From positions 25,234,001 to 25,298,000 of the forward strand of contig CM059437.1 in assembly GCA_030390025.1 (NCBI GenBank): a stretch of 64,000 nt of DNA. Direction: 5' to 3'. How positions within the stretch are numbered: the first letter of the stretch is position 1; each line of letters begins with the position of its first letter. Below, piece by piece: positions 11,921-61,365 of the stretch. Both the position numbers and the translations under genes were made by a program. A model generated the notes under the pieces. The model searched no databases, was not told where the DNA came from, and worked only from the letters and a program-made list of their open reading frames with translations. The DNA comes from Squalus acanthias (Eukaryota).

Positions 11921-12236
11921 GAGTACAGTAGTATAGTGGTTAAGGTACTGGACTAGTAACCCGGAGATTGTGACCAGATCGTGCCAAGGAAAATTGTGAA
12001 ATTGAATTTAATAATCTGGTAATTTGCGGGCTAGCATCAGAAAAAATTATCCTAAAAGTTGCAGATTGTTCCAAATACCCAACTGGTTCATTAATGTCCC
12101 TTTTTTAGGGAAGGGAATCTGCCACCCCAATCTGGTCCAGCTGTGTGACTCTTCATGCTCTCTGAAGTGGCTTAACAAGCAACTAGGGATGGGCAATAAA
12201 TGCGGCCTTGTGAATGTCACCCATGTCCTGAGTAAT
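11921..12236 (+). mobile_element. tRNA-headed SINE (same head and tail as the 53867 LINE)
   Basis: tagtatagtggttaaggtactggactagtaac head; ggttcattaatgtcc...agggaagg body; agggatgggcaataaatgcggcc tail. Confidence 0.8.
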
Positions 12237-12357
12237 TTTTTTAAATAAATTTGCTAGTGCATTGTAATCCCAATTTCCCTATTCTCTCCTCTCATTTTTA
12301 TATAAGAGCAGACAGCATTGTGCATTTTGCCAAAATTTAATCCAGCCAAGAAATAAT

Positions 12358-13074
12358 GGGGGTGAAATTGGGTGCCTTTGCACCTCCCATTAGCGCCCCC
12401 AGGGGGCACTAACGGGATGTAAATGGCTTTGCGACCGGGCGCAGCGCTGACATTGGCTCCTGCCATATTCGGCGGGAGTTTTGCGGCGGCGCTACAACGT
12501 TGCGCCCCAATCTCCTTCACCCGGAGATCGTGACGTTATCACCGTGCGCATCACCCTAGTAGCGCCCCAGACCTGAAATTGACTTCTGACCCCTGCAGTA
12601 GCGCTGGTCGAAAACACTGACAGCTGCAGGAGGCATGCATCGGGCGGCCAGCCACTTCGGGGACGATAATTAAAGGCGAGGTGGCCGAGGTAAGTAAAAA
12701 AAACAACTTACCTTTCTTGTTGCAGTTTTTTTCACAGGATCCTGCCCATGGATCGCAGCTGCCTTGGTGGTCCAGGTAGGTACTTTTTATATTGCAGAGC
12801 CTGCAGCATTAGCCCTGCCCTTTAAGGGAGGGAAGGAGCCTTTGAACGTGGCAGCACTGCATGGCCCAGTGTGCAGTGCTGCTGAAGTCTCCACCCCGCC
12901 TGCTGCCGATTGCACTTCAAGAAGGAAGTGGAGTGCTTGATTTAGCGCTCCACTTCCTTCCTGGAGCGCAAAACCAACTTTTTTTTAAAGTTTAGCAACA
13001 TTAGCGCCTGGCGCTAATTTTCTCAACTTTTAAAAGTTAGCTCCCCAAACAGGGCTATAATGAATTTCTCCCCC
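12358..13074 (+). mobile_element. PIF/Harbinger-type MITE (family A)
   Basis: gggggtgaaatt ... aatttctccccc with AAT/AAT TSD; homologous to 59727-60624. Confidence 0.8.
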
Positions 13075-14463
13075 AATGACCTTTAAAACTTATGATGATT
13101 CTTTTACCTATGCTAGCCTCCAGTGGTCATCTGTTGTCAAATTGAGTCCCTACTGTGACTGTTTTGGAGGAATCTTTCAGAGACGAAGATGTATGAAGCA
13201 GTGGTATTACATTGCTGGAGGATACTGCGACAAGTATTGAATCTCGGATTTCTAGAGCTTCGGGTCCAGTGTGGAAATAGTCCAGTTTTTAGAAGTGTCT
13301 TTTGTCTTGTGCAAGAGAGAGAGAAAATGGAAAGCTGTCAAATGGGGTTAATCAGTATTAAGTATCTTTTTTCATTTTAGATGCAATAATGTTAAATCAG
13401 ATGCATTTTCATGGTACAAAATGGAAAATTAATTCTCTTAAAATCTGTTTTTTCTTTATAGTGAAATTGTTGCCCTGTTCTGTCTCCATAACACTTCAGC
13501 TGTGTTATGTATCTTGTTTAAAAACTTCAGTTGTGTAAGGGAGGAATTTGTTTTGCAGTTTTTATTGTAGAGGGCTGTATTTTATTTTTGCTGTTGTTGA
13601 CCATACTCCTATCTGTTAACATAGGATGGTTTTGGTATATGAATAATGAACCTTTTGATCTCCAAAAGTGATTGTGTGGTTTTTGAACGCACTTTGGAAT
13701 TTCCTTCGTTTCATCCTGTCTCCTACCTCAAATACAGCACTTTGATCTTTTTCTCTAAACCACAGATATCTTTGTCATAGCATCATGGTGACTCACAGCT
13801 GAGTAATTCTAAGGAAGTTAGCTTTCTTTAATTAGCAAAAAGTAGCTGCTGCACTCGCTGAATTATAAGTTTTAGATTTCAAAAATGAAACTGATGAGTG
13901 ATTAGATGTTCAGCATAATTTGAAGGAGGAATTTCAATCTTGGGATACACAAGAGGATTAGTTAGTAGGAGACTCTCAAATAATTAATGTTATACTTTTT
14001 AAATTGTGATACTTGGGGCAGTTGGCCAGTGAGCTTATTTTTAGCTGTAGCAAATTTGAGACCTAATGTAAGTATACAGTCAACGAATCTCTAAATGGAA
14101 TATAATGTATGAGTTTGCATGGGTTTAAGGAATTGTATGTTGCAAGCTCATTGCACAGTATGTAATGTGTGTTTCTGTAAATAGAGGCTCTGGTATTCTG
14201 TCCTTCACCACCTGACTATCTGACTTTAACGGATGTCACTATTGTAGACAATGGAGATGCCACAGATAATCTGCACACGCAAAGTGTGCTTTTTATTGGC
14301 TGGTGGTGGCTCTTTACTGGCAAATGTTCTGATCTGTGTGTGAGTTTAACCTGTATCCTGCTTTTAACAGAGAGATCAAATTTGAAGTTCATTCATATAG
14401 ATCTATATATGATTTAAGTGTTTTAGCACTATTCACTCATTGGAAGTTCTTAAAGTATACTTC

Positions 14464-15301
14464 GGCCGCGATTTTATTAATGGAGGTGAGTTGAGTGCGG
14501 GACAGCTGGTTTCCGGCTTCCAGTCCCGCACCCAGCTGCATCCGCTCCACAGACTTGACTTGATTTTCCCTTGATTGACCTTGTTAAGCCCGCCAATTAA
14601 CAGGAAGCGGGTCTGATGACGTCATCTGCCGGTTTCCCTGAAGGGACCACGCACAATTTTATTTTGACAGTTGATTTCTCCGTGTTTGACAGCATTGAGG
14701 TGCTGAAAACACTGACAGTCACGGCACAAAGGTGACCTCTTGCACCCAGGCTCTCCAATGATTCCCTCCATAGGCTGGAATAGATGGCAGCTGCAGGTGA
14801 GGTGACAGAAGCAATCTGTCACTGGTGAGAGAGGTTCTCTCAATGAGGTGGCACTGGCCATGGATTTAAAAACTTGTAAGCTAAAGAAATCTATAAATGT
14901 ATTAAAAATGCAGTACCCAACATTTTCTTTGCTCTGAAACTCACCATGTGCAACATTGGATCCTTCGCACCACTTCTGCAGCTGTCCTCATTCCACAAAC
15001 ATTACACCAGACTCACAACACGCCATACTTACCTGGCGTAGTGTCCGGACGTCGGGAAACCCGACCCAGAAGCGGGAAAATCCAAAAACAGCCTGAAAAC
15101 TACTGGCAAGTACCCGTTAATAGACAGGTAATTGCCTTTAATTCGCTTCCCGCCGCTAGGTGTCGGGTCCATTCGCAAATCGGGGACCCGACACTTGGGA
15201 AAGCTGTTTGGAGACGTGTTGACGGCGAGATCTGAACCCGCCGTCAATCAAAATGAATTTAACCTCTGACCCACCCTCTGAGCGCCGGCAAAATCGCGGC
15301 C
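14464..15301 (+). mobile_element. PIF/Harbinger-type MITE (family B)
   Basis: Perfect 12-bp TIR GGCCGCGATTTT/AAAATCGCGGCC, TTC/TTC TSD; degraded Myb start (gcacccaggctctccaatgattccctccat) near 14740. Confidence 0.85.
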
Positions 15302-16586
15302 TTCGACTTGGCTTGGATACGTCCCAGGGTATACACCTTGTTGCCTGGCTACCAAGTATGATTAAGTGGTTATAATGTCACCCACTGGGAAATCATTTCT
15401 GTCCTTGGTTTTCATTGGTATTCCTTCTGTATTTATGGGATTCTGTCCTTTTCCCTGCAGCCCTATTACAAGAAGGTTAATTTTAAAAGTATGCTTTTCA
15501 CTGATTTGGGGATTTCAATTAATTTTAGGCGTAGGCATTTTTCAAAAAGGCTGTAACATTAAGGGAAACTTTATATTTACCTACTCAGTGATGTAAACAT
15601 CATGGAAAATAGCTGTGAACATACGTTAGCTGGGGAATTTACCTTTCTGACATCTGAGGAAGTTGCTATTGATTCTGACCTATTAAAATTACTTTTACAT
15701 CTGATCTGATAACTGTGCTTGTATAAACTTTTATAAAAGTTTATAACTCCTGTTAACTGGTGTTTGGAAAAATCTTTGAATATTAGGTCATCTTTTACTG
15801 TGTTTTAAATAGACAATATTTCTTTTTGTTACTTTGTGCTGAAATTGCATTGTGTGCTGCCCATGGGTGCATTGTATGTTTGCATTTGAAGTAGGCATTA
15901 CTTAGTTATGTGAGCACCAAGTTCATCAAATGTTTTTATAAAATCTGCTCCCTGTCCCAAACAAGCCAGTGTTGGAAAATAACACTGATACCAGCTCAGA
16001 TTAAGTGAAATTAGGGTAGCTATTGCTGTATGAGAAACGAGTTTATATCTTGCATCTGTATTATTGTAATCTAAATGAATTTCCATTCTGATAATGGGAA
16101 TTGCCTATGTAAACTTGTCTTACTGGAATTCTACCTTCCTGCCAGTGATGGTGCAGAAGTGCTTCAGTTTTGTGTCTCCCACCTTCTCCGCCTGTACTGC
16201 AACAAATGCTACATCTTTGTGTCCTAAATTGCTATAGGTTTAGCTATTTATCCATAAATAATATAAAATCTAAGTATTTTGATGCTACGCCACAGGAGAT
16301 TAACTAATGAATCACAAAAAGTAGTGATGCCTGACGAAGATCAAAAGTTTTCAGTACTGATCCAGAATCATCAAGTTTGCAACTTGTGCAAACAGATATT
16401 TTTCAACTTGAAACAAGCACAATCTCTTGTATTTTTGTCACGTCACATTGGATATATCTTTTAATCAGTACCACTATTTCTGATGACTTTTGATGCTCAT
16501 AAATCTTTTAAAGAAAGCATACGTGTGGTTTAGTACCTGTCTGGGGAATTTTCTTGTTTGCTCAGTGATAGCAGTCTTGCTTCTAT

Positions 16587-17397
16587 GGGCTGGATTTTAT
16601 CAATGGGGAGCTTTTGGAGGCGGGACTCCCACTTGTCGGGTTTTAGTCCCGCCTCCATCGACTTGTGACCAACCCACGCTATTTTCCCTTGATTGACCTT
16701 GTTAAGCCCGCCCAGCGGTTACAGGTGACATCAGCGAGTGACGTTTCATCTGTCTTGAGCTTTTGACAGATGAATTGTCATCGTTTGAGAGCTCTGTGAA
16801 GCTGTCAAACACTGACAATCTGTCCTCTAAGTTCAGTCCTGTCACTCAGGCTGAGTTAGAGAGCTCTCCTAAGCAGAAGGCTGCAGCTTCTGACAGTTCA
16901 GCGGCCATTCTGCTTTCTGTGCCGGTGAGCTGAGGGACTCCCGAGAACTGAAGGGAGGAAGCCTGCAGGATGAAGTAAAGGTAAGTAAAACTTATTAAAA
17001 CAGTTTATACACACACCTCACACACTTACCTCTTCACACATGCACCCATCACTCACCTGCACACCAGACATCTCGGTCCTTCGACCCCCGCAGACCGACG
17101 GCCCGCCTCGCTGACCCTGGCGAGGTTCGGAGCCGTCGGGAAGCCCACACTTCAGGGCTCAAAATGGGGATTCTCCAAAAAACTGCCTGTTAACTGCCTG
17201 TTGACGGGCAGTTAATTGGCAGTAATCCCCTTCCTGCCTCGAGGAGACGGGACCCGGTGCGGGTCGGGTACCCGCCTCCTGGGAAGATGGCACGGAGGCG
17301 GGTTGGGCTCGGGATGGGTACCCGCCCCCAGATTCTGCCATTTTCCCGGCAGTCCCGCCTCCAAACCCGTCTTCCCAGGGCTGGCAAGATCGCCCCC
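16587..17397 (+). mobile_element. PIF/Harbinger-type MITE (family B2)
   Basis: gggctggatttt left end, GGAGGCGGG/CCCGCCTCC subterminal repeats, closely similar to 37959-38763. Confidence 0.8.
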
Positions 17398-18980
17398 TTT
17401 GTCACTGAAATATCAAACTTAAAAGGGAAAAATCTAGCATAAAACATTCAGGTCAAGATAGAGTAGGTGGTGACATTTTTGCTGTAGCTCATTTTTACCA
17501 AAACAAAAATCCCAGCGCTGAGACACATTTTCCTGCTGGTGTACAATAATGACAACCGTCAATCCACGAGCAGAATTCTGTATGTGGACAAGTAAAAACA
17601 GAACGGAAAACAATTCTGACCAAGAGTTTTATGTACTTTTATTCCTCTTTCCCTGCTTAGTGCCAACTAATGGTGACAACAATTTTTAAAATGGAGGTAT
17701 GTGAGGAGAGCGTTAAATCCAAAGTATAGCTCCACACAATTTAAAAAAAAAGTAACCATTAATTTTGTCCTATTAAAAGCACCTAGGTTAGAATGGAAGT
17801 TTTAAAACTGGGGTCTGCAGACCTTCAAGGGTCTGAGAGGATCCCAATGTTCCTGAAGAGTCATGCGATTTCTGTATTTTTATGTTGTGCCAGTAAGTCA
17901 AAGGAATGTTATTTCTGCTATTTAGCAACAGAAATGCTAAGTTATGTTTTACTTTCCGTAGCTGACACTTCTTTTGGAAGGGGTGGCTGGGAATGTGCAA
18001 TTTTGCAGGGATTCCCACATAGAAGAGTTTGAAAACTACTCTTATCTTTTCTTTTACTTGTGGCCGCATGGAGTTGGCTGAAGTATTTGTTAGAAGGAAA
18101 GGGAATGTGGACTTGTTCTGAAATAGACTAATTTGTCGCCATCTCCTGCAAGCTTCTTTAACAAATTGTGTACTGCATTTTAAAAATAAATTGCAATTTA
18201 AATAATTACAATATTTACAACAAAATTGAGTCACTTTTTTTACTTTTCAGTATTGCAGAATCATTCAATAATCTTTTCTGACTATTGCTCTTGGCCATTT
18301 ACAAACTGGTAAGTTCAGTAAAAAGCAACATTTCATTGAATCCCACCAGTTGTATCAACTGGCTTAACCTACAGGGTTACTTGAATATTGCTATTTGCAA
18401 TTAAGGCATTGCAAGGCATTGCAGTTTGTTTTTCATGTATGTTAGTTGTCATAAGTGGCAGTAATTCAGTTGAGAACAAATGAAACTTTTTGGTGTAAAG
18501 AAAGTAGAAACCACCAGCCAAGTAAACATTTCCCTAAAATGACAGTTGTGTGGAAATATGTACAGCGTACTGCCCACAATTCTGTTTGTAGAGTTGCATC
18601 ATATCCTGAACGTTTGCAATATTTCTGCAATGCCATGTCCCTGACTTTATAATTTAAAATCCTACCTACTACTTTTGGAAATTCTGGTGCTTTGGATTAA
18701 TAATACTTTGGGAGGAGATGACTGCACCACTGGGTTCTAAAGGAAATTTAAAAATGGCCAAGAGTTTATAATGCTATCTTTAAATGTGTATTTTTTAAAT
18801 GCTGCCTTCTAAAGAGGTGTTTATATATAGATGTTCTCTTGCAGGAGCTGCAAACAGTGTGTATTCTGAATGTTCTGAAAGGGGCTGATCTTTTGTGACT
18901 GGCTGAACTTGTGAGAAAACATATGAGTAGATGACAGATGGCAACTTATCAGATAACCTTTTCTTTTCAGCGTTCTGTAA

Positions 18981-43828
<24,848 letters not shown>

Positions 43829-44461
43829 ATTCTGTGTGCCATTAACCAATGCAGGATCTATTGTTGTTGGTTATATCTTCAGTATGATTAACCACTAGTT
43901 ACAATGGTTTACACAATAATTTGTTTATATCTATTGTCTCTTGAAAATTAGTACTTTAATAATGTTACTACTCTGTTGCATATAATGCTTTAACTGCATT
44001 GTATCATGTTAATTTCCAGCTGCTTATTTCAAATTTAGCCCAACAAAGAAAGCTTTGTTTTACACCAGTCCAGTGCTTCAACATGGATCCGATCAGTCCT
44101 TGGCAATTGCAGATGGTTCAAAAGAAACAACTCTTCTGCAGTATATTGCAAGACTCTGGTGCACTATGGCAATGTGCTACCCTTTTACACTGTCCTTGTT
44201 CATGTGGATTTAGTAGATGTGTATTATCAACAGCTTCAAGTACACAATCCCAACTCATAGTGGGATGAAAAGTAAATTCTTCAGGAGTGTATTTTTTGCT
44301 GGTTTGAATTCAGAGATGATGCACTTATAAAAGAGATGTGGACTACATACCTGTGTCTTGGTCCCAGTGCACCTTGTTTGGAAAATGGCACCCAAGTGTG
44401 CAGAAACAGAGTACTGTGCATGACCAGTGTTTGTTTGAACTGCTTTTTAAATGTTTTTATT

Positions 44462-44845
44462 AATTCTCGGGATGTGGGTGTCCCTGGGAAGGCCGGCATT
44501 TATTGCCATTCCTAGTTGCCCTGAGAAGATGGTGGTGAGCCTCTTCTTGAACCTCTGTAGTGGTTTGCTACAACTGAATGGCTTGTTAGTCCATTTCAGA
44601 GGATTGTAAAGTCAACCACATTGGTGTGGAACTGGACTTGCATATAGGCCAGACCGGGTATGGGCAGCAAGTCTCCTTCCCTAAAGGACATTAGTGAATC
44701 GGTTGGGTTTTTACGACAATCCAAAGCTTTATGGTCACTTACTGATACCAGCTTATTATTTCCAGATTTTGAAAAACTGAATTCAAATTCTCAAACTGCC
44801 ATAATGGGAATTGAACTTGCGTACTCTGGATTATTAGTCTAGGCC
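44462..44845 (-). mobile_element. tRNA-headed SINE, antisense within the presumed STAT3 3'UTR
   Basis: ggatgtgggtgtc...gcatttattgcc...ccttccctaaaggacattagtgaa...ctggattattagt is the reverse complement of the 53867 head/tail. Confidence 0.85.
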
Positions 44846-46509
44846 TCTCGATTACTTGCACTGAATAGAGCTCTGCAGGGATGACGGTTCTGAGACTGGA
44901 CTACAGAGAGCAGGTGTCAATCGCTGTGTTAATCAGCTCTCCTTTCTCTGGCTATTCACCAGTTCCCACAGGGAAGCATGTTGTTATGGTGCACGGGGCA
45001 AGCTGACTGCTCAATTTATTTCCAGAGTCTGCTTAAGTTTCTTGATGAGTAAATGGATATTGTAGTGCGATGCTAAATTTAGCAGGACAGTGGGATGTTA
45101 ATGAGGCTGGTTGTTAGGTAAATAATGAAAAGTTGTTCTCTATGTAGATTAATTGTTTTTATATTAAAAGCATTTTTTTGTTATAACTCTTAAACGAGGT
45201 TCTAAAAGACAAAGCTGCATCCATGTGGTGTATTGCCCCTGAGGAAAGAGCCAATCCAACATTACTAATAAATTTAGAAATGTTTGAAAATGTAAATTGC
45301 ATTAAGCTGCAGGGAATTGTAATATGTCTGTGATTTGTACTTTAAAAAGGTATTGTTGGCATTGTAGAAAGTGAACAATAATGGAAACTGCCTGGGCCAG
45401 AGGTAGAAAATTACAATTCAGTGGAGTGCATTTGGCTAAGGATTTAAGGTCTGCAATCATTCTGTATTTCAATAATGCAGTGTTTATTATTGACAAAAGT
45501 ATATTCAGAGCAATGCTTGGTCTAACAATGGGAATGCATTTTTAAGAATTCTTGATGTTGCTCTAGTGCTTGAGGTTGTTTGAAGTAAATGGAATGTGCA
45601 AGTAAAATGTCAAGTATGACAATGCTAGCAAAGGTTTGTATATATTGGACCATCAAAACCTTTTTTGAAGGTCTGGTGTTTGGGCTGGGGAGGGGAGAGG
45701 ATTAGAAATCCCATTTGAACCCAGGTCTTTTGGCCTAAGTGTTAGAAAAATGGTCGATTCAAGATGAGTTTTTTACTTTTGCCATGTGAAGCTTCTGTGT
45801 GAAGACTGCATTATAGAGTTAACAACTCCAATGGGCTTGCATTGTGCTACCATGTGGATAATGATGAGTTAAACTGTATAATCATGGTTTTCGACATGTA
45901 AGTCAGAAATCCACGATTAAGCCACAACGAAGCAGTTTTTAGTGTACTCTTGTAAATTTTTTTGTACATTATGGGAGAGGGAGGAAAAATTCTACAAGTT
46001 TGAAACAATTTTTTGATGAGGAATTTGAATTTATCACTGTAGGAAAAAGTAAATCTCGAGCAGAGAGCTACAAAGATGTCCAAATTGCATTCTGACTGGT
46101 TTGAGTAACTGAGTAACCTTTTATTACCTCCCATCTCCCTGCTTCAGTATAATGCAGTTCAGTTTCTTCGTGCCGTAAAGCCGACTGTGTACCTCCACTG
46201 TCTTACTCAAAAATGATTGCTTTTCGGAAGTAGGGAAGCATATTTTTAATCCCCTCCATTGTATATGAATGCATGATGTAATGAATTCTAAAACTGGTTG
46301 AATATCACTGTTAAGCTGTAAAACATTCTCTTACAGTGCATCCGATTCTGTTTTAAGCATTTTTAATTAATTTCATTTGTGAAATGTATGGTTTGACTGT
46401 ATTCAAGATGTGTATATGAAAAGTGTGTATAAATGATATAGGCAGCATTCATTTATGCTGTAAATTTTATTGCTGTAATACTGAAAACTATCTCCTTATC
46501 CTTTTACTG

Positions 46510-46570
46510 ATTAAAAGGCCAAGCTTTAACTGTCCAGTTGTGCCGGTGTTTTTTGTTAAGTTAGTGTTTG
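46510..46570 (+). terminator. Candidate STAT3 polyadenylation signal (ATTAAA + GU-rich downstream element)
   Basis: ATTAAA at 46510-46515 with several upstream TGTA motifs and downstream gttgtgccggtgttttttgttaagttagtgtttgt; an alternative AATAAA lies at 45267-45272. Confidence 0.45.
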
Positions 46571-46664
46571 TCAAAATAGTTTTTATATTGCCCTCGGTTG
46601 TGCAGCAAAATCAAAATTGATATTTGCATCACAGCCAACTAAAAATGCATCCTTCAAATATATA

Positions 46665-47260
46665 CAGGAAACTCTTTGGTATCCGGCACCGACGGGACCG
46701 GCGTGGTGCCGGTTGATCAAAAGTTCCGGATAACGGAGAGTTATATCTACCAAGGCTATTTTTAACAAACAAAAATAAAAAAATCAAGAAATGTGCAGTA
46801 TACAGTATTTGGGTACTCACCTACAGAATGTTGTGTTAAATGGATGGTGGAAGATGCTTGATTAAGTACAGTACTGCCAGTTGAGGGTAATCCATAACTC
46901 TAATTACTTAACAGTAAAACAAAACTTACACACAGTAAAATGGCCGATCAGAAGAGACTCCCGGCAGCGCGGGAGAATCAGACTCCTGTTACTGCAGTGT
47001 TCGGACTTCCGACAGCGCCAGGAGGCCGAGTAGTGGCACTTTGGAGAACTACCCCCACTGACTAACTCGGCGTTCGCGATAGACTCGGACTCGGCAACAT
47101 TGCCGGTTATTTGAGAGGAGTTTTCGGAGTACTCGGCGTTCGCGGGAGACTCTGAATCGGCAACATTGCCGGTTATTTGAGAGGAGTTTTCGGAGTATGA
47201 TTTTTGCCGGTTAAGAGAGAATTCCGGATATTTAGGTGCCGGTTAAACAAGAGTTTCCTG
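46665..47260. mobile_element. Tc1/mariner-pogo (Tigger-like) MITE
   Basis: TA|CAGGAAACTCTTTGGTATCCGGCACC ... GGTGCCGGTTAAACAAGAGTTTCCTG|TA; internal 66-bp tandem duplication 47065-47196. Confidence 0.85.
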
Positions 47261-47840
47261 TACATCATTATGTAAAGGAAAAGGAGACTGTGCAATGGTT
47301 TAGGCTTTTTAATTGCTATTTCTGTGTAACAGTTGTATAGAGTCCAAGAACCAGGGCTAAAAACACCCTACTGCCTAATAGAGGGACCACCTTCATATAG
47401 ACAAATTACCTAATTATATTGATTTACACTTGAAACAATTTCAAAAAGCGCAGATATTGGGTAAATAACAAGTTCAAGACAATATTGTAATACCGTATAG
47501 AGTCAAAGCTGCAGTCCACTGCAACGATTACTTCCATGGAATTGCGCTGCTATAGCCTGGTCTACTACGAGCAATCCAAAGTGTTTTAAGTCAGCAGTGC
47601 CATTTGGTTCCATGATGTCTCTCTTCATGTGAATAGTGCAACATTAGACTCCAGTCATGAAGAGTCTTCCAGCTCACACGCTCAAAATAAGAGAACATTC
47701 CGGGCCTATTGACGGTTCTTTTTTAAGGATTCATTTCCTTTTATGGGTGGATTTGCCAATCAAGCTTGGAAAAAAATCAAATATTGAAGTAACAATGCTT
47801 TTTGGTCCTTGACAATATTTCCACAAAACTAAAATACAAT

Positions 47841-48595
47841 GGCCCAGAAATTCGCGTGTCGGGCTTGCGGGGGTAAGGATCACGCGCGCTCTTACCTACC
47901 GCGCCTGCTGTTGTGTTTTGGGCCCACGGGAACTTCAGGGTCCTGGGCCTCTCCCAACTGCCGGCGCGCAGTGCTTGCGTGTTCCAGGGGCGCAGTTAGT
48001 GCGATGCGACCCCTGGGATCACGTGGGCCATGGAGAGCCAATGGCAGCAGACCATCTTTCATTCATAGATTTGACAGGAGATCTGTCAAATCTGTGAATT
48101 GAAATCGGCCCCAAAAGAACAGCTAAACTTTAAATTTTTTTTAAAAAACCATCACATTTATAAAATAACTATAGTTAAATAAATTAACCACTTTAAACAA
48201 AAATTTAAATTTTTGAAAAAATTAAAATACTTTTTAAAAGTTATAAAAATAAACTTACCTTTCTTTAAAGTATCTAAAAAAGATAAACCTGTTGAAAAAA
48301 TTTAAAATTATACTAATTAACCACTTACCTTGTTCAAAAGGGGTCTTACGCCTCTTTTATTAGCGTAGTATCTTCAATACTTACCCTCGAGTAGAAACCT
48401 GAAAAAAAATCTAAGTGTGCTGCGTGCGCGCAGCCTCTAGCGCGCACGCGATTCACCTAGGAACCGCCCCCTTCACCATACCGGAAGTTCCGGTTTCCCG
48501 CGCATGCGCAGTGCATGCAGGAAACCGGCACTTCGGGAAGCAATACGGGGAGTACGGACTGTGTACTCACCCGGGAAGAGCCGAATTTTTGGGCC
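47841..48595. mobile_element. MITE with GC-rich arms and AT-rich core (Harbinger-like TIR)
   Basis: GGCCCAGAAATTCG / CGAATTTTTGGGCC TIRs (1 mismatch), flanks aat/att. Confidence 0.75.
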
Positions 48596-49289
48596 ATTAA
48601 TTAGGACTAATTGCAGATGGTGGAAGGCAGTCTTTAACATACAATAGTAAAGTTTATAGGTGAATCATAAGCTGCTGACACTTTGCAGAATTCACTTGCA
48701 TATGTGGAAAAATCATCCCAAGATGTTTTACTGAGCATGAGTAAAACATGCCAAGCCAAAAGGAGGAGAGATTAGGAAGGCTGACTAAATGTTTGGTCAA
48801 AAAGGTCAACTTTAAGGAGGGCCTTAAAAGAGAGGGATGTGTATGTGTGGAAAGATTGTAGCGGGGAGGGTGGGTGCATTTCCAGAGAGTGGGATCTTTG
48901 TGGTTGAAAGTACAGCCACCCTTGGTGGGGTGCAAGGAAGGGAGAGGAAAGCACTCCCTTCAGAATCCAGAGATTACCAGTTCCAGGATTCTCAGACTCC
49001 TATGAGCCTCTTTTTTGAAAATTCTTCATTGTTTAAGACAAGCCACTAGGTGAAAGTCCTTCTGGTACCGCAAGAGAGTAAATAAACATAATTGTTCCTG
49101 CCTGGAGTCTTTCACCAAAATAACGGATGAACTTGAGATGTCTCTTTAAAAATTAACAGCTATTTTGAATGGATGATGGAGAGGATAAAACATGTTTTTT
49201 TTAAAGCAATGGTGGCCCTAATCAATGTATTTAAAACAAGGTAGCTTTAGGAGAGTTTACTTTCAGTTTAAAGTGCTTCTGCTTTTCCA

Positions 49290-49601
49290 TCATAGAAACA
49301 TAGAATCTAGGAGCAGGAGTAGGCCATTCGGCCCGTCGAGCCTGCTCCACCATTCAATACGATCATGGCTGATCATCCAAATCCAGTACCCTGTCCCTGC
49401 TTTAATCCCCACAGTACACATATCCCACCCTACCCCCGTAACCCCACGTATTTAATTCCCCCTAACATATCCCATCCTATCCCCATAACCCCACATATTT
49501 AATACCCCCCTAACACTAAGGGTCAATTTATCATAGCCAAATCAACCTAACCCGCACATTTTTGGACTGTGGGAGGAAACCGGAGCACCCGGAGGAAACC
49601 C
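49290..49601 (-). mobile_element. HE1/V-SINE-like fragment plus CR1-type tail
   Basis: tttggactgtgggaggaaaccggagcacccggaggaaaccc is the reverse complement of the V-SINE core; related tail at 20312-20403. Confidence 0.75.
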
Positions 49602-50315
49602 TTTCTAAAAGTAAATATTTGCTTCCTTAGGAGATTTTGAAGGGACATTTTATTTTCTGTCTATGTTTAGAATGGGCATTCTCCATTAACATCAGTGACA
49701 TGACTGGTAGCAAGTAGCTCCATAGTCCTATTGTTGACTGGCATTCTTTGTCTCCTGATTGATTATCGGGACAGCATTGAAAATAACAATGTTGCAACAA
49801 CTGTGAGGCACTACAGCTTTAAGTTGACTGTTATCTTTAAATTGACTGTTACCTTTTCTTAACAGTTTAAAATTAAATAATTCGGATGAGACATTAAAGG
49901 GAGGCCCCGTCTGCTCTCTCGGGTGGACGTAAAAGATCCCACTGCACTATTTCGAAGAGGAGCGGGGGAGCTCTCCCCAGTGTCCTGGGACCAATATTTA
50001 TCCCTCAACCAGCATCACTAAAAGAGATTATCTGGTCATTATCACATTGCTGTTTGTGGGAGCTTGCTGTACACAATTTGGTTGCCACATTTCCTATGTT
50101 GTAACAGTAACTGCACTTCAGAGAGTACTTCATTGACTATAGCGCTTTGCAATGCCCTCAAGTCGTGCAAGGCGCTGTACAACTACTTTCCCAGAGCGTA
50201 GAGAGCCTCTCAAATGCGTTGCCAGCTGGTGTGATGAGTACTGACTCAGTACGCCTTCAAGAGAGAGCTGGACCGATTCCTGACTGGGGCAGATATTGCA
50301 TCATATAGAAGCTAA

Positions 50316-51055
50316 GAGCTAGATTTTGTGAATGGAGGCGGGACAGCTGCTTGTCGTGTCAATGTCCCGCCTCCATCCTCGCCTGACCAACCAGAGGAAT
50401 TTTCCCTGATGGAGCCTGTTAAGCCTGCCCTGCGGGCTCAGCAGGCCAATTAGGGAGGAAGTGACTGACAGATCACGTTAACGTCAGACGTGCTATCTGT
50501 CAAGACTTCTTCAAAGAAGAAATGTCAGCGTTTGACAGCTCTGTGAAGCTGTCAAACACTGACATGCTGTTTAGTTTGATGAGTCCTGTGTTCAGGACTC
50601 ATCAAACCTTTCAAATTTGTAAATTTCACATGGCTGTTGGAACAGAGGTTCCAACAGCCAGTCTGTGAAATTGACGAGCAGGATGTCAGCTCTTAAGATC
50701 CACCGCGGCTAAAGGCTGTAGAAAGAAAACAAGGTAAGTGAACACTTTTTTAAACTTAGCACTCACCCTGCATACCTACCACTCCACACTTGCACCCATC
50801 ACTCACCTCTACACCCTACTTCCAGGTGCCCCTGACCGCCACAGACCTCCTCCACGTCTCCTCCAACCCAGCGGGGTTCTCCGAGGTCGGAAAGCTTTCA
50901 CCTGTGAAGGTAAAATGGCACTAATCCTTTTTTCTGCCTGTTAACTACCTGGCAAAAGGGCACGGAGGCGGGATGGGGGCAGCTTTGCCATCCGCCCCCA
51001 CTTTCTCCGAGTTTACCGGCTGTCCCGCCTCCTCGGGGCTTGGAAAATCCAGCCC
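50316..51055 (+). mobile_element. PIF/Harbinger-type MITE nested in a LINE 3' fragment (~50190-51190)
   Basis: gagctagatttt ... aaaatccagccc, flanks taa/caa; LINE-like sequence resumes after the element. Confidence 0.75.
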
Positions 51056-51854
51056 CAAGTGTCTTTATAGATAGCACTTGGTCCGTGTGATCTCCTGGAC
51101 TGGTTTCAATCGCCTGAGGGGATCGGAGAGGAATTTTCCAAGTATTTTTTCCCTTATTGGCCCTGGTTTTTTTTTCTCTTTTTAGATTACGTTGCTACAG
51201 GAGGGGAGGGAGGGAGGGAGTGGAAGGCGTAGTTACAATCCTCCGGCCAGCGTGAGTTGTACATTTGTGTGGAGCATTGTGTAAAATGTGTGTTTTAAAA
51301 GTTGATCATTTAACTGCAGATTTGCATAATGTTCCACAAACACATACAAGTTGGAACAAATCTTTCTGGCTCCCTGCGAGTGTCAGGGTAGAATGTTTGC
51401 CGTGCAGTCGCAGCCACTTTTGGCCACACATCACTTAGTTCATCTCAAAACATTTGCAAGTAAAGTGAACGGATAGGTTAGTAACTTTTCCTACAATATA
51501 ATTGATTTCCTTAAGTATGGAAAACGTATTGTTCCCAAAAGTCCTTGGAGAACCTAAATTAGTGCTTCTTCAAATCTTAATGCTGTGATAAATTAATTAT
51601 ACATTGAATTGTAAAATGCAGAAATAAGTGGTCTCTCAGAACACTGATTTACAATAATGTTTATAAAAAATGTAAGTAAGACCCTGTCTCCCCAAGCATG
51701 ATATATTAGCTGTGAAGATTAATCTCTTTTTTGTTACTATAAAGAGGCTGAAGTGTAACTAGTTTTCAATGGAGTACAATTTTGAAATGCTTCCATGAAT
51801 AAGTACTTTAATATTAGTCATGCACAGCCTTTGCAGATTGGGTTTACATATAAT

Positions 51855-53270
51855 TACATAGAATGTACAGCGCAGAAACGGCCCATTCGGCCCAACTGGT
51901 CCATGGTCCACACAAGCCTCCTCCCACCCCTCATCATCTAACCCTATCAGCCTAACCTTCTATTCCTTTCTCCCTCATATGTTTAGCTAAATGCATCTAT
52001 GCTATTCGCCTTAACGACACCATGTGGTAGCGAGTTCCAAATTCTAACCACTCTGGGTAAAGGAAGTTTCTCCTGAATTCCCTATTGGATTTATTGGTGA
52101 CTATCTTATATTTGTGGCCCCTAGTTTTGAATTCTTCCCACAGATAGAAACATTTTCTCTACGTCTACCCTATCAAACCCTTACCTCTATCAGGTCACTC
52201 CACTCAGCCTTCTCTTTTCTAGAGAAAAGGGCCCCAGTCCATTCAGTCTTTCCTGCTAGGTACAACCTCTCAGTTCTGGTATCATACTTGTAAATCTTTT
52301 TTGCACCTTCTCCAGTGCCTCTATATCCTTTTTATAATGTGGAGGCCAGAACTGTGCTCAGTAACAAGTGTGATCTGACCAAGGTTCTACAGAAGTTTAA
52401 TATAAATTCTCTGCTTTTCAACTCTATCCCTCTAGAAATGAACTCTAGCGCTTTGTTTGCTGTTTTTATGGCCTTATTAACCTGTGTCGCTACTTTTAGT
52501 GATTTGTGTCTCAGCACCCCTAGATCCCTTTGCTCCTCTATCTCATTTAGACTCTTAATGTGACCTCCTTATTCTTCCTACCAAAATGCACCACCTCACA
52601 CTTAGCTGTATTGAAATTAATTTGCCAATTACACGCCACTTCTGCAAGTCTGTTAATGTCTTGTAATTTGTCGCTGTCTTCCTCAGTATTGACTATACTT
52701 CCCAATTTGGTGTCATCTGAAAATGTTGAAATTGTACTTCTGATTCCCGAGTCCAAATCATTTATGTAAATGGTGAACAACAGTGTTTCCAGCAGCGATC
52801 CCTGTGGAACACCACTTCCCACCTTTTGTCAGTCTCAGTGGCTACCTTTAACCCCTACTCTCTCTTTTCTGTTTTGTAACCAGTTTGCTATTTATTCTGC
52901 TACTTGTTCCCTGACTTCACATGCGTTGACTTTTTTTCACGAGTCTACTATGCAGTACCTTATCAAAGGCCTTTTGAAAATCTAAATATATTACATCTGC
53001 TGCATTACCCTTGTCTATTCTTTCTGTTATTTCTTCAAAGAATTCAATAAGGTTGGTCAAGCATGACCCCGTGCTGACTATTCTTTACTATATTTTCAGA
53101 TTATTCTACGACCTCTTTGAGTAAAGATTCCATTATCATTCCTACCACCGCATTAAGCTAACTGGTCTAATGTTCCCTGGACTTGTTCTATCTCCCTTTT
53201 TAAATATAGGAATAACATTAGCTGTCGACCAGTCCTCTGCCACTTTTCCCTTTCCTATTGATTTTTGAGA
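51855..53270 (-). mobile_element. Degraded CR1 LINE ORF2/3' fragment
   Basis: Minus-strand SGVPQGSLL..LFTIYINDLD...FSDDTKLG and KANKALEFISRGIELKSRE; 3' tail near 51855. Confidence 0.88.
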
Positions 53271-53866
53271 TATGTCATCGTGCCTGCAGTTTGCTGCAGT
53301 TCATTTCTGCTTTACTCAATGTTGAAGGTTCTGCTACAGTCTTTGTTCAAGAATCAAAGTCAATAGCTTCCCTGGTGTCTTAGTTGGTAACTGCAGAGGA
53401 AAGTCTGTGGGTTCGATCGTAGGTCTGTGCTGAGTTCACTGATCTCATGTCAGGGCAACACCTGAGGTGCCACAAGTGGCTTCTATATCTCTGGGTTAGG
53501 GAGTGAAGAAGTACCGAGAATTTCTGCTCCTGCTTGTTCTATGGAAAGTGTGGATGTTAGTTAAGGGCAGAATCAGTTCAAATAACCTGCCAACATCTGC
53601 TGGCTGGGTGCCAATTTGAAGAATGGTAAATTGAATGCGATACTGTAGGGCTACAGGTGCCCACGGAACTGTACCTCAGCGTAAGTCAGTGCCTTCAACA
53701 AATGAGAGGAAAAAAATTGAGGGGGATTGAACACTATTGTGGCTGTTCACTTTCTGATGCTCAGATCCCATCATACATTACTATTAAAATAATTTCTATA
53801 TAAACTAAGTTTTGCGATCCAGATTCAATACACATTTTTTTGCCTAATTTTCTTCATTCCCTTTCA

Positions 53867-56635
53867 GGGAACGGTAGCATAGTGGTTATGTTACTGGATT
53901 AGTAATCCAGAGGCCTGGACTAATGATCCGGAGACGTGAGTTCAAATCCCACCACGGCAGCTGGGGAATTTAAATTCAGTTAATTAAATAAATCTGGAAT
54001 AATTACCAGTATCAGTAATGGTGACCATGAAACTATCGGATTGTCACAAAAACCCATCTGGTTCACTAATGTCCTTTAGGGAAGGAAATCTGCCGTCCGT
54101 ACCTGGTCTGGCCTATATGTGATTCCAGACCCGCAGCAATGTGGTTGACTCTTAACTGCCCTCTGAAATGGCCTAGCAAGCCACTCAGTTGTAAAAAAAC
54201 TGCTACGACAAACAATAAGAATAAAACTGGACGGACCACCCGGCATCGACCTCCACACCAGCTACAGACACGACAATGGTACACCCAGCCCAGTCGACCC
54301 TGCAATGTCCTCCTCACCAACATCTGGGGACTTGTGCCAAAATTGGGAGAGCTATCCCACAGACTAGTCAAGCAACAGCCTGACAAACTCATATCCACAG
54401 AATCATACCTTTCAACCAATGTCCCAAACTCCTCCATCACCATCCCTGGGTATGTCCTGTACCACCAGCAGGACAGATCCACCGGGGTGGCGGCACAGTG
54501 GTATACAGTCAGGAAGGCGTGGCCCTTGGAGTCCTCAACATTGACTCCGGACCGCATGAACCTCCTGCTGATTACCACCTACTGCCCTCCCTCAGCTAAT
54601 GAATCAATACTCCTCCATGTTAAACACCACTTGGAAGAAGCACTGAGAGTAGCAAGGGCACAGAATGTACTCTGGGTGGGGGACTTCAATGTCAATCACC
54701 AAGAGTGGCTTGGTAGCACCACTACTGACCGAGCTGGCCGAGTCCTGAAGGACTTAGCTGCCAGTCTGGGCCTGCGACAGGTGGTGAGAGAACCAACACG
54801 AGGGAAAAACCTACTTGACCTCGTCCTCACCAATCTACCCGTCGCAGCTGCATCTGTCCATGACAGCATTGGTAGTAGTGACCACCGCACAGTCATTGTG
54901 GAGATGAAGTCCCGTCTTCACAATGCGGACACCCTCCATCGTGTTGTGTGCGCTACCACTGTGCTAAATGGGATAGATTCAGAACAGATCTAGCAGCTCA
55001 AAACTGGGCATCCATGAGGCGCAGAATTGTATTCCACCACCGGATCCAGCAAAGGTTATGGGCCCCGACAACATCCCGGCTTTCATGCTGAAGACTTGTG
55101 CTCCAGAACTAGCCACGCATCTAGCCAAGCTGTTCCAGTACAGCTGCAACACTGGCATCGAGCCGACAATGTGGCAAACTGCCCAGGTAGGTCCTGTCCA
55201 CAAAAAGCAGGACAAATCCAATCCAGCCAATTACCGCCCCAGCCAATTACCGCCCCATCAATCTACTCTCAATCTACTCTCAATCATCAGCAAAGTGATG
55301 GAAGGTGTCGTCGACAGTGCTATCAAGCGGCACTTACTCACCAATAACCTGCTCACTGATGCCCAGTTTGGGTTCCACCAAGACCACTCGGCTCCAGACC
55401 TAATTGCATCTTGGTCCAAACATGGACAAAAGAGCTGAATTCCAGAGGTGAGGTGAGAGTGACTGCTCTTGACATCAAGGCAGCATTTAACCAAATGTAG
55501 CATCAAGGAGCCCTAGTAAAACTGAAGTCAATGGGAATTGGGGGGGGGGAAACTCTCCACTGGCTGGAGTCATACCTAGCACAATGGAAGATGGTTGTGG
55601 TGGTTGGAGGTCAATCATCACAGCCCCAGGACATTGCTGCAGGAGTTCCTCAGGGCAGTGTCCTAGGCCCAACCATCTTCAGCTGCTTCATCAATGACCT
55701 TCCCTCCATCATAAGGTCAGAAGTGGGGATGTTCGCTGATGACTGCACAGTGTTCAGTGTCATTTGCAACTCCTCAGATAATGAAGCAGTCCATGCCCGC
55801 ATGCAACAAGACCTCGACGACGTTCAGGCTTCGGCTGATAAGTGGCAGGTAACATGCGCGCCACAGAAGTGCGAAGGCAATGACTATCTCCAACAAGCGA
55901 GCGTCTAACCACCGCCCCTTGACATTCAACGGCATTACCATTGCCAAATCTCCCACCATCAATATTCTGGGGGGTCATCATTCACCAGAAACTTAACTGG
56001 ACCAACCACATACATACTGTGGCAACAAGAGCAGATCAGAGGCTAGGTATTCTGCAGCAAGTGTCTCACCTCCTGACTCCCCAAAGCCTTTCCACCATCT
56101 GCAAGGCACAAGTCAGGAGTGTGATGGAATGCTCTCCACTTGCCTGGATGAGTGCAGCCCCAACAACACTCAAGAAGCTCGACACCATCCAAGACAAAGC
56201 AGCCTGCTTGATTGACACCCCATCCACCACCTTAAACATTCACTCCCTCCACCACCAGCCTACCGTGGTTGCAGTGTGTACTATCTACAAGATGCACTGC
56301 AGCAACTCGCCAAGGCTTCTTCGGCAGCACCTTCCAAACCCGCAACCTCTACCACCTAGAAGGACAAGGGCAGCAGGCGCATGGGAACAACACCACCTCC
56401 AAGTTCCCCTCCAAGTCACACACCATCCTGACTTGGAAGTATATCGCCGTTCCTTCATCGTCGCTGGGTCAAAACCCTGGAACTCCCTCCCTAACAGCAC
56501 TGTGGGAGTACCTTCACCACACGGACTGCAGTGGTTCAAGAAGGTGGCTCACCATCACCTTCTCAAGGGCCAATAGGGATGGGCAATAAATGCTGGCCTT
56601 GCCAGCGACGCCCACATCCCATGAATGAATAAACA
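53867..56635 (+). mobile_element. CR1-group (Zenon-like) LINE, degraded EN+RT, with tRNA-like 5' head
   Basis: A box tagcatagtggt (~53875), B box gagttcaaatccc (53938-53950); APE motifs TNIWGL, GDFN, PTRGKNLLDLVLTN, SDH; RT motifs GPDNIP, NYRP, GVPQGSVLGP, FADD, KAQVRSVME; (atga)n tail; several frameshifts and an internal deletion. Confidence 0.88.
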
Positions 56636-56694
56636 AATAAACCTCTCCTGAAGGTGCTAACTCCTTGCTGGGATATAGTTCTACAGCCACCTTC

Positions 56695-58440
56695 TTGGCC
56701 CCTTGAGCCTGCCCCGCCATTCAATAAGATCATGGCTGATCTTGGGCTCAAAGCCACTTCCCCGCCCGCTCCCCATAACCCTTCACTCCCTTATCTTGCA
56801 AAAATCTGTCTATCTCCACCTTAAACGTACTTGATGACCCAGCCTCCACCGCTCTCTGGGGCAGAGAATTCCACAGATTTACAACCCTCTGAGAGAAGAA
56901 ATTCCTCCTCATCTCAGTTCTAAAAGGGCGACCCTTTATTCTAAAACTGTGCCCCGCGTTCTAGATTCCCCACGAGGGGAAACATCCTCTCTGCATCTAC
57001 CTTGTCGAGCCAACTCAGTATCTTATATGTTTCAATAAGATCACCTCTCATTCTTCTAAATTCCAATGAGTATAGGCCCAGCCTGCTCAAACTTTCCTCA
57101 TAAGTCAACCCCCTCATCTCTGGAATTAACCTAGTGAATTGTCTCTGAACTGCCTCTAATGCAAGTATATCCTTCCTTAAATAAGGAGACCAAAACTGTA
57201 CGCAGTACTCAAGGTGTGGTCTTACCAATACCCTGTACAGTTGTAGCAGGACTTCCCTGCTTTTATAATCCAACCCCTTTGAAATAAAGGCCAACATTAC
57301 ATTTGCCTTTTTGATTACTTGCTGTACCTGCATGCTAACTTTTTGTGTTTCATGCACAAGGACCCCCAGGTCCCTCTGAACTGTAGCATTTTGTAATCTC
57401 TCTCCATTTAAATAATAATTTGCTTTTTTATTTTTCCTGCCAAAGTGTATAACCTCACACTTTCCCACATTATACTCCATCTGCCAAATGTTTGCCCACT
57501 CACTTAGCCTGTCTATATCCCTTTGCAGGTTCTTTGAGTCCTCTGCACAACTTGCTTTCCCACCCATCTTTGTATCATCCGCAAACTTGGCTACATTACA
57601 CTCGGTCCCTTCATCCAAGTCATTAATGTAGATTGTAAATAGCTGAGGCCCCAGCACCGATCCCTGTTGCACCCCACTAGTTACCGTTTGCCAACCGGAA
57701 AATGACCCATTTATCCTGACTCTCTGCTTTCTGTTAGTTAGCCAATTCTCTATCCATGCTAATATATTACCCCCAATTCCGTGAGCTCTTATCTTATGCA
57801 GTAACCTTTTATGTGGCACCTTATCGAATGCCTTCTGGAAATCCAAATACACCACATCCACTGGTTTACCTTTGTCCACCCTGCTCGTTACCTCCTCAAA
57901 GAACTCCAGCAAGTTTGTTAAACATGATTTCCCTTTCATAAAACCATGCTGACTCTGCGTGACTGCATTATGATTTTCCAAATGCCCTGCTACTGCTTCC
58001 TTAATGAAGGACTCCAGCATTTTCCCAACCACAGATGTTAGGCTAACTGGTCTATAGTTTCCTGCTTTCTGTCTCCCTCCTTTCTTAAATAGGGGTGTTA
58101 CATTTGCGGTTTTCCAATCCGCTGGGACCTCTCCAGAGTCCAGGGAATTTTGGTATATTGCAACCAATGCATCCACTATCTCTGCAGCCACTTCTTTTAA
58201 GACCCTGGGATGCAGGCCATCTGGTCCAGGGGACTTGTCGTCTTTTAGTCCCATTATTTTACCAAGGACTATTTCCTTAGTGATAGTAATTGTCTTTAGT
58301 TTCCCCCCTCCCTGTGGCCCCTTGATTATCCATTATTGGGATGTTGTTAGTGTCTTCTACTGTGAAGACAGATACAAAATATTTGTTCAGAGTCTCTGCC
58401 ATTTCCCCGTTCCCTATTATTAATTCCCCAGTCTCATCCT
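56695..58440 (-). mobile_element. 5'-truncated CR1 LINE with 437-aa RT ORF (56941-58254)
   Basis: KSPGPDG, NYRPVSLTS, YLDFQKAFDKV, QGSVLGP, FADDTK, VRPHLEYCVQFWSP; C-terminal frameshift; CR1 3'UTR near 56700. Confidence 0.95.
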
Positions 58441-59726
58441 CGTCCCTAAATGCTTTACAGGCAATTAAGTACTTTCGAAGTGGAGTCTCTGTTGTAATGT
58501 AGGGATTGCGGCAGCCAATTTGCGCACAGCAAGGTCCCACAAACAGCAATGTGATAATGACCAGATAATCTGTATTTCAGTGATGTTGTTTGAGGGATAA
58601 ATATTGGCCCAGGACACGGGGATAACTCCCCTGCTCTTTTTCGAAATAGTGCTGTGGGATCACATCTATGGCAATCCTTTCCACAGATGCTAGTAGTTAA
58701 GTATCCTGGCTAAAGTAGGCGATATAATAGGAATCCCTAATCTCCAGATTATTACAAGAGCTGGCAATGTTTTAAAAGTAATCCACATATTTGATCAATT
58801 TTTAATTGCCTGACAGTGCAGCAGACCTTGATGTTGGAGACCTCTTTGGCAATAAGGTGCAACTACAGCACTGAGCACTGCCGAAGAATTATTCCCATTT
58901 GGCATATTTTTTCATACTGGATATAAACTTGCTAATGGGTGTTTGCATATGAGAAGCTCAACTCTGATCAACAGTGCTTTCTGTTGAATAAAATTAAGCT
59001 GCCATTACATTTTGACTCTTCCCTTGCCTGTGATTTGCAGTTAAACACACATGTTGTGAATTTGCTTTCCTTAACTTTAGGTTGCCTTACGCAATTCACC
59101 ATTTCCCAGTGAAATGGTAATCAGGTTTTCTGATCCTGGAATGCTGCTTGTGAGTTTCATCCTAAGGAGCGTGCTGAAGTAGCACAGGGTAACTGACCAT
59201 GTTGTTTTCTGGTTTAAATTTTGTTCCTCCCCTGATACTGCAGAGTCAAAGTCAGCGAATTTACCATGTGGGAAATTCTGCATCCTGACATTGTTCTTAC
59301 TGTGTTGCTGCTTTAGAGAGGTGTCTGTCCCTTGATCCATCCATTTAATTAACGTGAAGCTTTCTATTTCTTTGAACCAAATGTAAAATCCTATTACTAT
59401 TCAGTTAAATAAAATGAAGTGATCTGATCTGTGTTTTCACACTGTAATAAATATTCTTTTTATGCTCCTACATGTACAGGTAAGTATGATTCGTGATGGA
59501 GCAATGAAACCAAATCACCAGCTACTCTGTTAAAAGTTCCGGAGAGGGGCACTGTGCGTGTGTATGTATAATAAATATCCTTCAGTTGGTAATCCTGTGA
59601 CACACTCAACCCATTGAAATCAATGGATAATGCTGCAACAATAACAACTATTCCTTTTACTTGCTCCTGATGTGGCATTGTAACATCTGTCAGCTGGTTA
59701 CAACAAGCATAGCTACAAGACATAAT

Positions 59727-60734: not shown

Positions 60735-61365
60735 TGATTGGCCTTTATTACAAGAGGATTGGAGTATAAGAGTAAAGATGTCTTACTGCAATTATATAGG
60801 GCCCTGGTGAGACCACACCTGGAGTATTGTGTACAGTTTTGGTCTCCTTACCTAAGAAAGGATATACTTGCCAGAGAGGGAGTGCAACGAAAGTTCACCA
60901 GACTGGTTCCTGGGATGGGGGGATTGTCCTATGAGGAGAGATTGAGTAGACTAGGTCGATATTCTCTAGAGTTTAGAAGAATGAGAGGTGATCTCATTGA
61001 AACATACAAAATTCTTACAGGGCTTGACAGGGTAGATGCAGGGAGGATGTTTCCCCTGGCTGGGGAGTCTAGAACCAGAGGTCACAGTCTCAGAATAAGG
61101 GGTCGGCCATTTAGGACTGAGATGAGGAGAAATTTCTTCACTCAGAGGGTGGTGAATCTTTGGAATTCTCTACCCCAGAGGGTTGTGGAGGCTCAGTCGT
61201 TGAGTATATTCAAGACAGAGATCGATAGATTTTTGTATATTAAGGGAATCAAGGGATATGGGAATAGTGCAGGAAAGTGGAGTTGATGTAGAAGATCAGC
61301 CATGATCTTATTGAATGGCCAAATGGCCTACTCCTGCTCCTATTTCTTATGTTCTTATGTTCTTA
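60735..61365 (+). mobile_element. CR1 LINE 3' fragment (young)
   Basis: Uninterrupted 182-aa ORF2 C-terminus (60738-61286) and (ttcttatg)n tail. Confidence 0.93.

Follow-up and report, generated by a model that had tools for sequence, protein, structure and literature searches.

A tRNA-headed LINE family of sharks and the nested junctions of the SINEs around one copy in Squalus acanthias

Introduction

Our study concerns a window of 64,000 nucleotides (nt) from Squalus acanthias (assembly GCA_030390025.1, contig CM059437.1, positions 25,234,001 to 25,298,000, forward strand), in which a long interspersed nuclear element (LINE) begins with a head derived from transfer RNA (tRNA), and in which four short interspersed nuclear elements (SINEs) join the same 5' region to the same 3' tail. 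The bodies of SINEs are mostly of unknown origin, and the birth of a SINE is thought to require template switching to a small RNA. In the present case a coding LINE family carries head, body and tail alike, so that a single deletion can yield a SINE; the question raised by this locus is whether the SINEs arose in that way and, if so, how many times. The first-pass annotation, made from the letters of the window, had read the local SINEs as independent internal deletions of the headed LINE, with about three different breakpoints between the same head and tail. We find that the headed LINE belongs to a large family, that the local junctions form a single nested series, and that the SINEs share states that the LINE copy lacks; one or a few old deletions, followed by trimming within the SINE lineage, may account for this pattern. 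The comparison of junctions and the trees draw on the five local copies in the window (the LINE copy and the four SINE copies), and further evidence comes from the contigs of four public sequencing runs, from protein look-ups and from 69 metagenome loci of distant LINE relatives. The coordinates of all junctions are those of the LINE copy in the window.

Results

The strings quoted in the first-pass annotation for the joins of head and tail, in the LINE and in the SINEs, were all located in the window. A blastn comparison of the LINE with the window places head and tail pieces side by side at 36753-37152 (+), 44456-44856 (-), 11925-12210 (+) and 30217-30269 (-), with matches far above chance (E 1e-65 to 1e-5) and no further piece of the headed LINE beyond these four sites; profile searches of the window gave no additional copy except a marginal match at 26586 (E 0.19). 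The body of the LINE is 76-80% identical to those of SINEs 36752 and 44462 over 290 nt, the tRNA-related head can be aligned in three of the four SINE copies, and the fragment at 30210 retains only about 35 nt of body. The local SINEs have their 3' tail in common with the partner LINE and carry no open reading frame (ORF). By these alignments, the structure of the SINE is that of the headed LINE minus its ORF.

The features of the LINE and of the four SINE copies are collected in Table 1. SINE 11921 has a second gap of 29 nt and an insertion of 4 nt; because it is also the most decayed copy, its junction may be private to it. No clean target-site duplication was found around the LINE copy, SINE 36752 or SINE 11921, and the candidates at 30210 (9 nt with one mismatch) and 44462 (8 nt with one mismatch) are doubtful. 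Each full SINE copy contains one to three runs of four or more T, possibly through decay. SINE 36752 begins about 55 nt past the splice donor of one of two SH2 exons (36546-36692 and 40940-41180, +), which we take, from their translation, to be STAT3-like; the repeats are spread around these exons.

Table 1. Coordinates of the headed LINE, the local SINE copies and the corresponding site in head-less relatives
Feature	Position	Strand	Basis or description
LINE copy, about 2.77 kb	53867-56637	+	head, body of about 250 nt, decayed ORF for apurinic/apyrimidinic endonuclease (APE) and reverse transcriptase (RT), tail
tRNA-derived head with A box and B box, anticodon arm tandemly duplicated	53867-53953	+	Rfam tRNA match
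Anticodon-arm duplication in LINE head	53894-53912 and 53915-53933, period 21	+	alignment
Body common to LINE and SINEs, with terminal hairpin (54163-54188), then GCTAC (54202-54206)	53954-54206	+	hairpin predicted; SINE alignment
Single ORF, decayed, with a short spacer followed by APE endonuclease, RT and C-terminal region	54207-56576	+	Pfam, three-frame translation, P0001 alignment
LINE 3' region retained in SINEs	56495-56637	+	starts at 56495 in longest common class, ~56527-56530 in local long copies, 56564-56572 in short copies
SINE 36752	36749-37152	+	one anticodon arm; junction the longest of the local copies, with body ending at 54206 and tail starting at ~56527
SINE 44462	44456-44858	-	5' truncation inside first arm; arm duplicated like LINE; junction 6 nt shorter than 36752
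SINE 30210, short fragment	30200-30305	-	body to 54190, tail from 56564; junction 48 nt shorter than 44462
SINE 11921, most decayed	11921-12240	+	one arm only; junction reduced by 15-16 nt relative to 30210
Strong hairpin and GCTAC before the ORF of head-less relatives	L003:606-662; L006:448-505		predicted

The head of the LINE matches the Rfam tRNA family at 53874-53953 with 25.5 bits (E 0.006), which is under the gathering score of 29, and ARAGORN called no tRNA gene on it. The body ends with ...ctgctac at 54206, and the tail carries ...gcagtggttcaagaag at 56528-56543 and reaches the end of the LINE at 56630-56637. The ORF between them gives a match to Pfam PF14529 (E 1.9e-14), is not accompanied by an ORF1, and is interrupted by frameshifts, stops and internal deletions near 54558 and 55024-55040. 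Against an intact protein of 938 amino acids (P0001) it aligns in four segments at 37-48% identity, with about 190 residues absent between segments; judged from relatives, its full form is a single APE-RT ORF of about 940 amino acids. A search of protein clusters with P0001 matched only generic APE-RT clusters. We surmise that the LINE may be a member of CR1-Zenon. The internal deletions of this copy have removed about 12 codons at 54558 and about 190 codons at 55024-55040, and two short tandem duplications lie in its RT region at 55225-55290. CR1-type LINE copies occur at 56700-58332 (-), 60738-61350 (+), 5701-6046 and 28648-29064, and one such copy, with an open RT frame of 463 codons, adjoins the 3' end of the headed LINE.

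The window LINE copy is not alone, for headed LINEs of its type form a multi-copy family. Contigs that start at 53867 number 517 in run X1 and 751 in run X13, and among the 32 contig pieces listed, with 704,256 beyond these, at least two bridge the body and the ORF. One of them covers 54075-54377 with 63 differences from the window LINE (run X13, record 9) and the other covers 53970-54237 with 37 (run X6, record 25), and from these differences they are other copies, in two other organisms. Inside the ORF (54275-54373) the summed contig depth is 225,000 to 1,390,000 in three DNA-like runs, against 10-15 in the flank; this depth is not a copy number, yet it shows a very large family. The depth of the bin 54176-54274 was dropped as proof that head and ORF are continuous, as 18 of its bases fall in the SINE body. 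The 180 proteins retrieved were compared with the body, spacer and endonuclease of the LINE. A Heterodontus protein (P0016) matched all three in order, while three Rhincodon proteins (P0026, P0035 and P0044) matched body and endonuclease. Gene models can splice, so the contiguity of body and ORF is readable only in P0016 and, with its N-terminus judged by eye, in P0032. Headed copies are thereby present in two shark orders, in the horn shark Heterodontus francisci and the whale shark Rhincodon typus, the two species that supply the named proteins nearest to those of the window. Pattern scans for more shark copies returned none in metagenome contigs and none in viral contigs, and in bacterial genomes they gave two chance 19-mers whose flanks were without similarity. 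Pieces of the LINE have been absorbed into public shark gene models (P0003, P0016 and P0017 of Heterodontus and several models of Rhincodon), where they are fused to, for example, zinc-finger, CWC25 and immunoglobulin-domain genes; these fusions are probably annotation artefacts.

The joins between head and tail are distinct, as the first-pass annotation had it, and number four instead of three, SINE 36752 keeping 6 nt more than SINE 44462. The four junctions nest fully in the order 36752 > 44462 > 30210 > 11921, each being contained in the previous one. Independent derivatives would each be expected to keep LINE sequence that is absent from the others, and the four junctions do not show this pattern; four independent deletions would give such nesting with a probability of 0.043, or 0.085 with one shared left end. 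Among the 15 contig joints listed, with 8,046 beyond these, eight link the head to the 3' end, and six of the eight, the commonest ones, combine left ends at 54190-54193 with right ends at 56495, 56566 or 56574-5, a pattern seen in all four runs. The CAGC at 56495 is echoed as CAG(C/T) at 56529. Because both positions begin with CAG(C/T), the 56495 class may, judging from its end points, stand at the head of this nested series, in front of the local long copies.

The SINEs also share states that separate them from the LINE copy. All four SINE tails have GA at 56621-2 where the LINE has AT, a change whose first letter can be explained by CpG decay and whose second cannot; all three SINE heads have A at 54057 where the LINE has T, and SINEs 36752 and 44462 have further states in common. 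In the head, the LINE has a branch of 0.06, whereas the branches of the three SINEs, at 0.14, 0.17 and 0.34, are two to five times longer. On these letters and lengths, the local SINEs are older than the window LINE copy and therefore do not come from its subfamily; their source is, as far as the alignments tell, either one SINE master or older LINE masters. The proposal that the local breakpoints record independent deletions is not supported, in view of the nesting and of the shared states and greater age of the SINEs. The first-pass annotation had itself named, together with a SINE family older than any head-bearing LINE, variants nested as deletions of a single SINE master as what would speak against its proposal, and all four junctions have this nested form. 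Both forms of the head, with single and with duplicated arm, occur in run X17 (records 17 and 18, gaps read by eye).

Relatives of the LINE bear on the direction of descent. The head profile found no match in the 69 metagenome loci, many of which may be 5'-truncated, and an Rfam scan of 12 LINE relatives found no tRNA. The closest relatives in which upstream sequence is present, L003 and L006, are without a tRNA head and have about 200 nt in common. Both are predicted to form a hairpin, with a loop of 7 nt and GCTAC after it, 140-141 nt upstream of the endonuclease start; in the shark LINE a similar hairpin and GCTAC stand 155 nt upstream of that start in the same frame, at a site that coincides with the end of the SINE body. 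An alignment of 111 columns can be made between the body end and the L006 sequence ahead of the endonuclease, with matching position and frame; only three of the nine hairpin pairs show compensatory change. One descriptor picks out the hairpin in L003, L006 and three shark copies and nowhere else, but it was built from those very sequences, so that its low chance figure is no test. If the homology of the hairpin is real, the end of the SINE body would be LINE-born, which would weakly favour deletion over tail capture. L003 and L006 have no in-frame ATG near the endonuclease, and the hairpin and GCTAC in these relatives are possibly a clade-wide signal for translation or packaging.

Over 2764 nt the sense strand of the LINE is free of TTTT, which occurs 2-21 times in all ten head-less relatives compared and six times in the neighbouring CR1; base shuffles lead one to expect 4.2 (p 0.015). 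The same strand (53867-56630) has ten runs of four A, and eight occurrences of TTT where 13-20 are expected. The deficit of T runs would fit a LINE that has long relied on a polymerase III head. Both the hairpin homology and this deficit could also be reconciled with a head that reached the LINE from an early SINE.

Elsewhere in the window lies an unclassified repeat family with internal repeats and up to 85% identity over 850 nt, at 16582-17398 and 37954-38764, at 14470-15164 and 39131-39817, and at 50333-51032.

Discussion

The explanation that we prefer, and that we rate as about evenly poised between right and wrong, is that one or a few old LINE-to-SINE deletions were followed by stepwise trimming in the SINE lineage, with some mosaic exchange with the evolving LINE. 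We propose that a shark LINE with a single APE-RT ORF has for its own 5' end a head that derives from tRNA and is served by polymerase III, and that the ORF was deleted, in one or a few events, from an older master of this LINE, a loss that would have fused the end of the 5' region to the 3' tail. Because promoter and RT-recognition tail would both be retained, the product of such a deletion would at once be a working SINE, which could amplify through the shared tail. The dispensable region around the junction would then have been shortened stepwise by small deletions, often between short repeats, to give nested variants, while the LINE kept evolving; the copy at 53867 would be a younger cousin of the parent and not the parent itself. 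To this extent the first-pass idea that the SINEs were born by deletion from a coding master, and not by tail capture, gains support: the SINE looks like the headed LINE without its ORF, the LINE is multi-copy, and the body end may be LINE-derived.

A number of observations weigh against this explanation. The homology of the body end reaches p 0.013 in only one of 36 comparisons, a profile of L003 and L006 does not find the shark site, and under dinucleotide shuffles the expected number of TTTT falls to 2.2, with p only 0.08. For neither head nor tail is any quartet of the five copies rejected, and head and tail favour different quartets; the 21-nt arm duplication, present in the LINE and SINE 44462 and absent from SINEs 36752 and 11921, cuts across the long junction. 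The two shortest junctions are found on the most decayed copies, which is the opposite of what long-to-short trimming predicts (two copies against two). The window LINE has private letters just after 54193, and these account in part for the constancy of the left end there. Four listed joints lie outside the nested series (54083->56355, 54168->56481, 55644->56476 and 55731->56454, with depths of 370-1480), each of them seen in one contig of one run and flagged as unreliable; where its length is stated, the short side has 21-26 letters. Lastly, the SINE-derived peptide P0067, a chance ORF on a 589-nt contig that reads through the short junction, has LINE-type residues at three diagnostic sites; the short junction is therefore present on two backgrounds. 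A homologue search with P0067 returned only P0067 itself.

From P0067, the non-nested joints and the LINE copy's own loss of about 190 codons, deletion derivatives of the headed LINE probably arise more than once, yet the four local copies do not support the view that the local junction variants are such separate births. It is, in our judgement, unlikely that successive headed-LINE masters each shed their own SINE subfamily by a 2.9-kb deletion, reusing breakpoints since deletions are held to the same few dozen bases, by short repeats on the one hand and by selection to keep head and tail on the other. Recurrent birth of this kind would account for the presence of the short junction both in P0067, whose background is LINE-type, and in SINE 30210, which has the other tail type, for the arm duplication and the two further sites that SINE 44462 has in common with the LINE, for non-nested joints of high depth relative to the single-copy level of 10-15, and for the internal deletions of the window LINE copy itself. 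It sits poorly with the complete nesting of the local junctions and with the derived-looking states that SINEs 36752 and 44462 share despite their difference in the arm, and each non-nested joint is a single contig in a single run with short support; moreover, repeated trims of 6-50 nt explain more simply than recurrent 2.9-kb deletions how one short junction could be reached twice, and a 21-nt tandem duplication collapses easily.

The order of events might instead have been reversed, a head-less LINE giving a bipartite derivative that gained a tRNA head (the route of Okada and Hamada and of Kojima), and the LINE later taking the head from that SINE by a template switch in the shared 5' sequence; the SINE would then merely resemble a deletion of the headed LINE. 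Such an order would suit the stronger decay of all local SINE copies relative to the LINE copy, the single arm of SINEs 36752 and 11921 as the tRNA-like ancestral state and the head-less state of L003 and L006, the nearest relatives with a visible 5' end, and exchange of modules between SINEs and LINEs is documented in the accessible parts of PMC5786205 and PMC5499810. It nevertheless requires three events (deletion, head gain and back-transfer) against two, headed copies occur in two shark orders, and the 2.8-kb ORF free of T runs weakly suggests that the LINE has long possessed its head; we hold this order to be improbable. Had an unrelated SINE captured the tail in the classical way, and were the headed LINE a one-off chimera or an adjacent insertion, the lack of a target-site duplication around the LINE copy would be accounted for. 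This explanation is largely refuted by the bridging contigs in two other organisms and the gene models in two named sharks, and with the very deep coverage of the region directly after the body in three DNA-like runs it seems to us highly improbable.

Beyond the preferred sequence of old deletion and trimming, one may ask whether sharks have possessed, over the life of at least two orders, a standing source of new SINEs in an autonomous LINE driven by polymerase III, with repeated births from successive masters that reuse short-repeat breakpoints; since such a LINE brings its own tRNA head, each deletion of the ORF would give a ready SINE at a single stroke. We regard this as possible but doubtful. 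If true, repeated births would open a route to SINEs that needs no fusion with a small RNA, and a single genome would preserve them as a dated series. Repeated independent births are the claim that would surprise specialists, and the four local copies do not show them. The order of events is testable in public shark assemblies through trees of junctions and subfamilies.

A description of this SINE/LINE family, including its motif strings and headed or chimeric LINEs, was not found in the literature searched; Repbase, Dfam and SINEBase lay outside that scope and may catalogue it. Like SacSINE1 and LmeSINE1, Deu-SINEs of sharks and coelacanth, as they appear in the accessible part of PMC5499810, the present family consists of tRNA-headed shark SINEs of about 400 nt with a LINE-derived tail. 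Identity with SacSINE1 was rejected, as the head printed in the supplement of PMC5786205 does not match the SINE heads here. The SacSINE1 head motif has its sole match in the window at 33571-33594 (+), with three mismatches, in a separate repeat. This site points to a second SINE family in the window, as does a repeat at about 26560-26970 (+), which presumably resembles SacSINE1 and has relatives at 49935-50141 and 58451-58661. HE1 carries a V domain and a CR1 tail. The HE1 SINE and HER1 LINE of sharks, a V-SINE and its partner, are likewise a shark SINE-LINE pair with a common tail in the available portions of PMC3747384 and PMC4824008; HE1 is set apart by description only, the SINE tail here having no match to the CR1-type LINEs of the window in self-comparison. 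With regard to the conserved central domains of V-SINEs, MetaSINEs and CORE-SINEs, the body motifs are absent from the searchable supplements of PMC4824008 and PMC11481361, alignments in figures lying outside the search. ZenoSINE with the Zenon LINE (PMC6685494) and the CR1-Zenon partners of bivalve SINEs (PMC11481361) also involve tails of CR1-related LINEs, as far as the available text of these papers goes, and a CR1-Zenon-like class is reported from the whale shark in the accessible part of 10.1101/443036. Unlike here, the tail of ZenoSINE is fused to an unrelated head, and the same portions of PMC6685494 and PMC11481361 mention no headed LINE.

Bipartite SINEs derived from LINEs and internally deleted LINEs include Bov-A/Bov-tA from BovB, AfroSINE, SINE2-1_EC, RIME from Ingi and the Vingi-1_EE derivatives (Kojima, 2018; PMC5786205); the accessible part of that paper names no source other than RTE, Ingi, Vingi and R2. 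Its supplement did not contain the RTE 5' hairpin motifs sought there, and the eight matches that it gave to a 10-nt body motif all fall in the RTE/Ceph domain. As described there, bipartite SINEs resemble those of the present locus in being non-autonomous, in combining 5' and 3' parts of a partner LINE, in originating by internal deletion and in being mobilised via the shared tail. They differ in that their head was added after the deletion, the LINE being headless; here the LINE itself carries the tRNA head, and one deletion therefore suffices for a SINE. By this analogy, the SINEs of the headed LINE are a variant of the bipartite, LINE-derived kind, distinguished by a head that is borne by the LINE.

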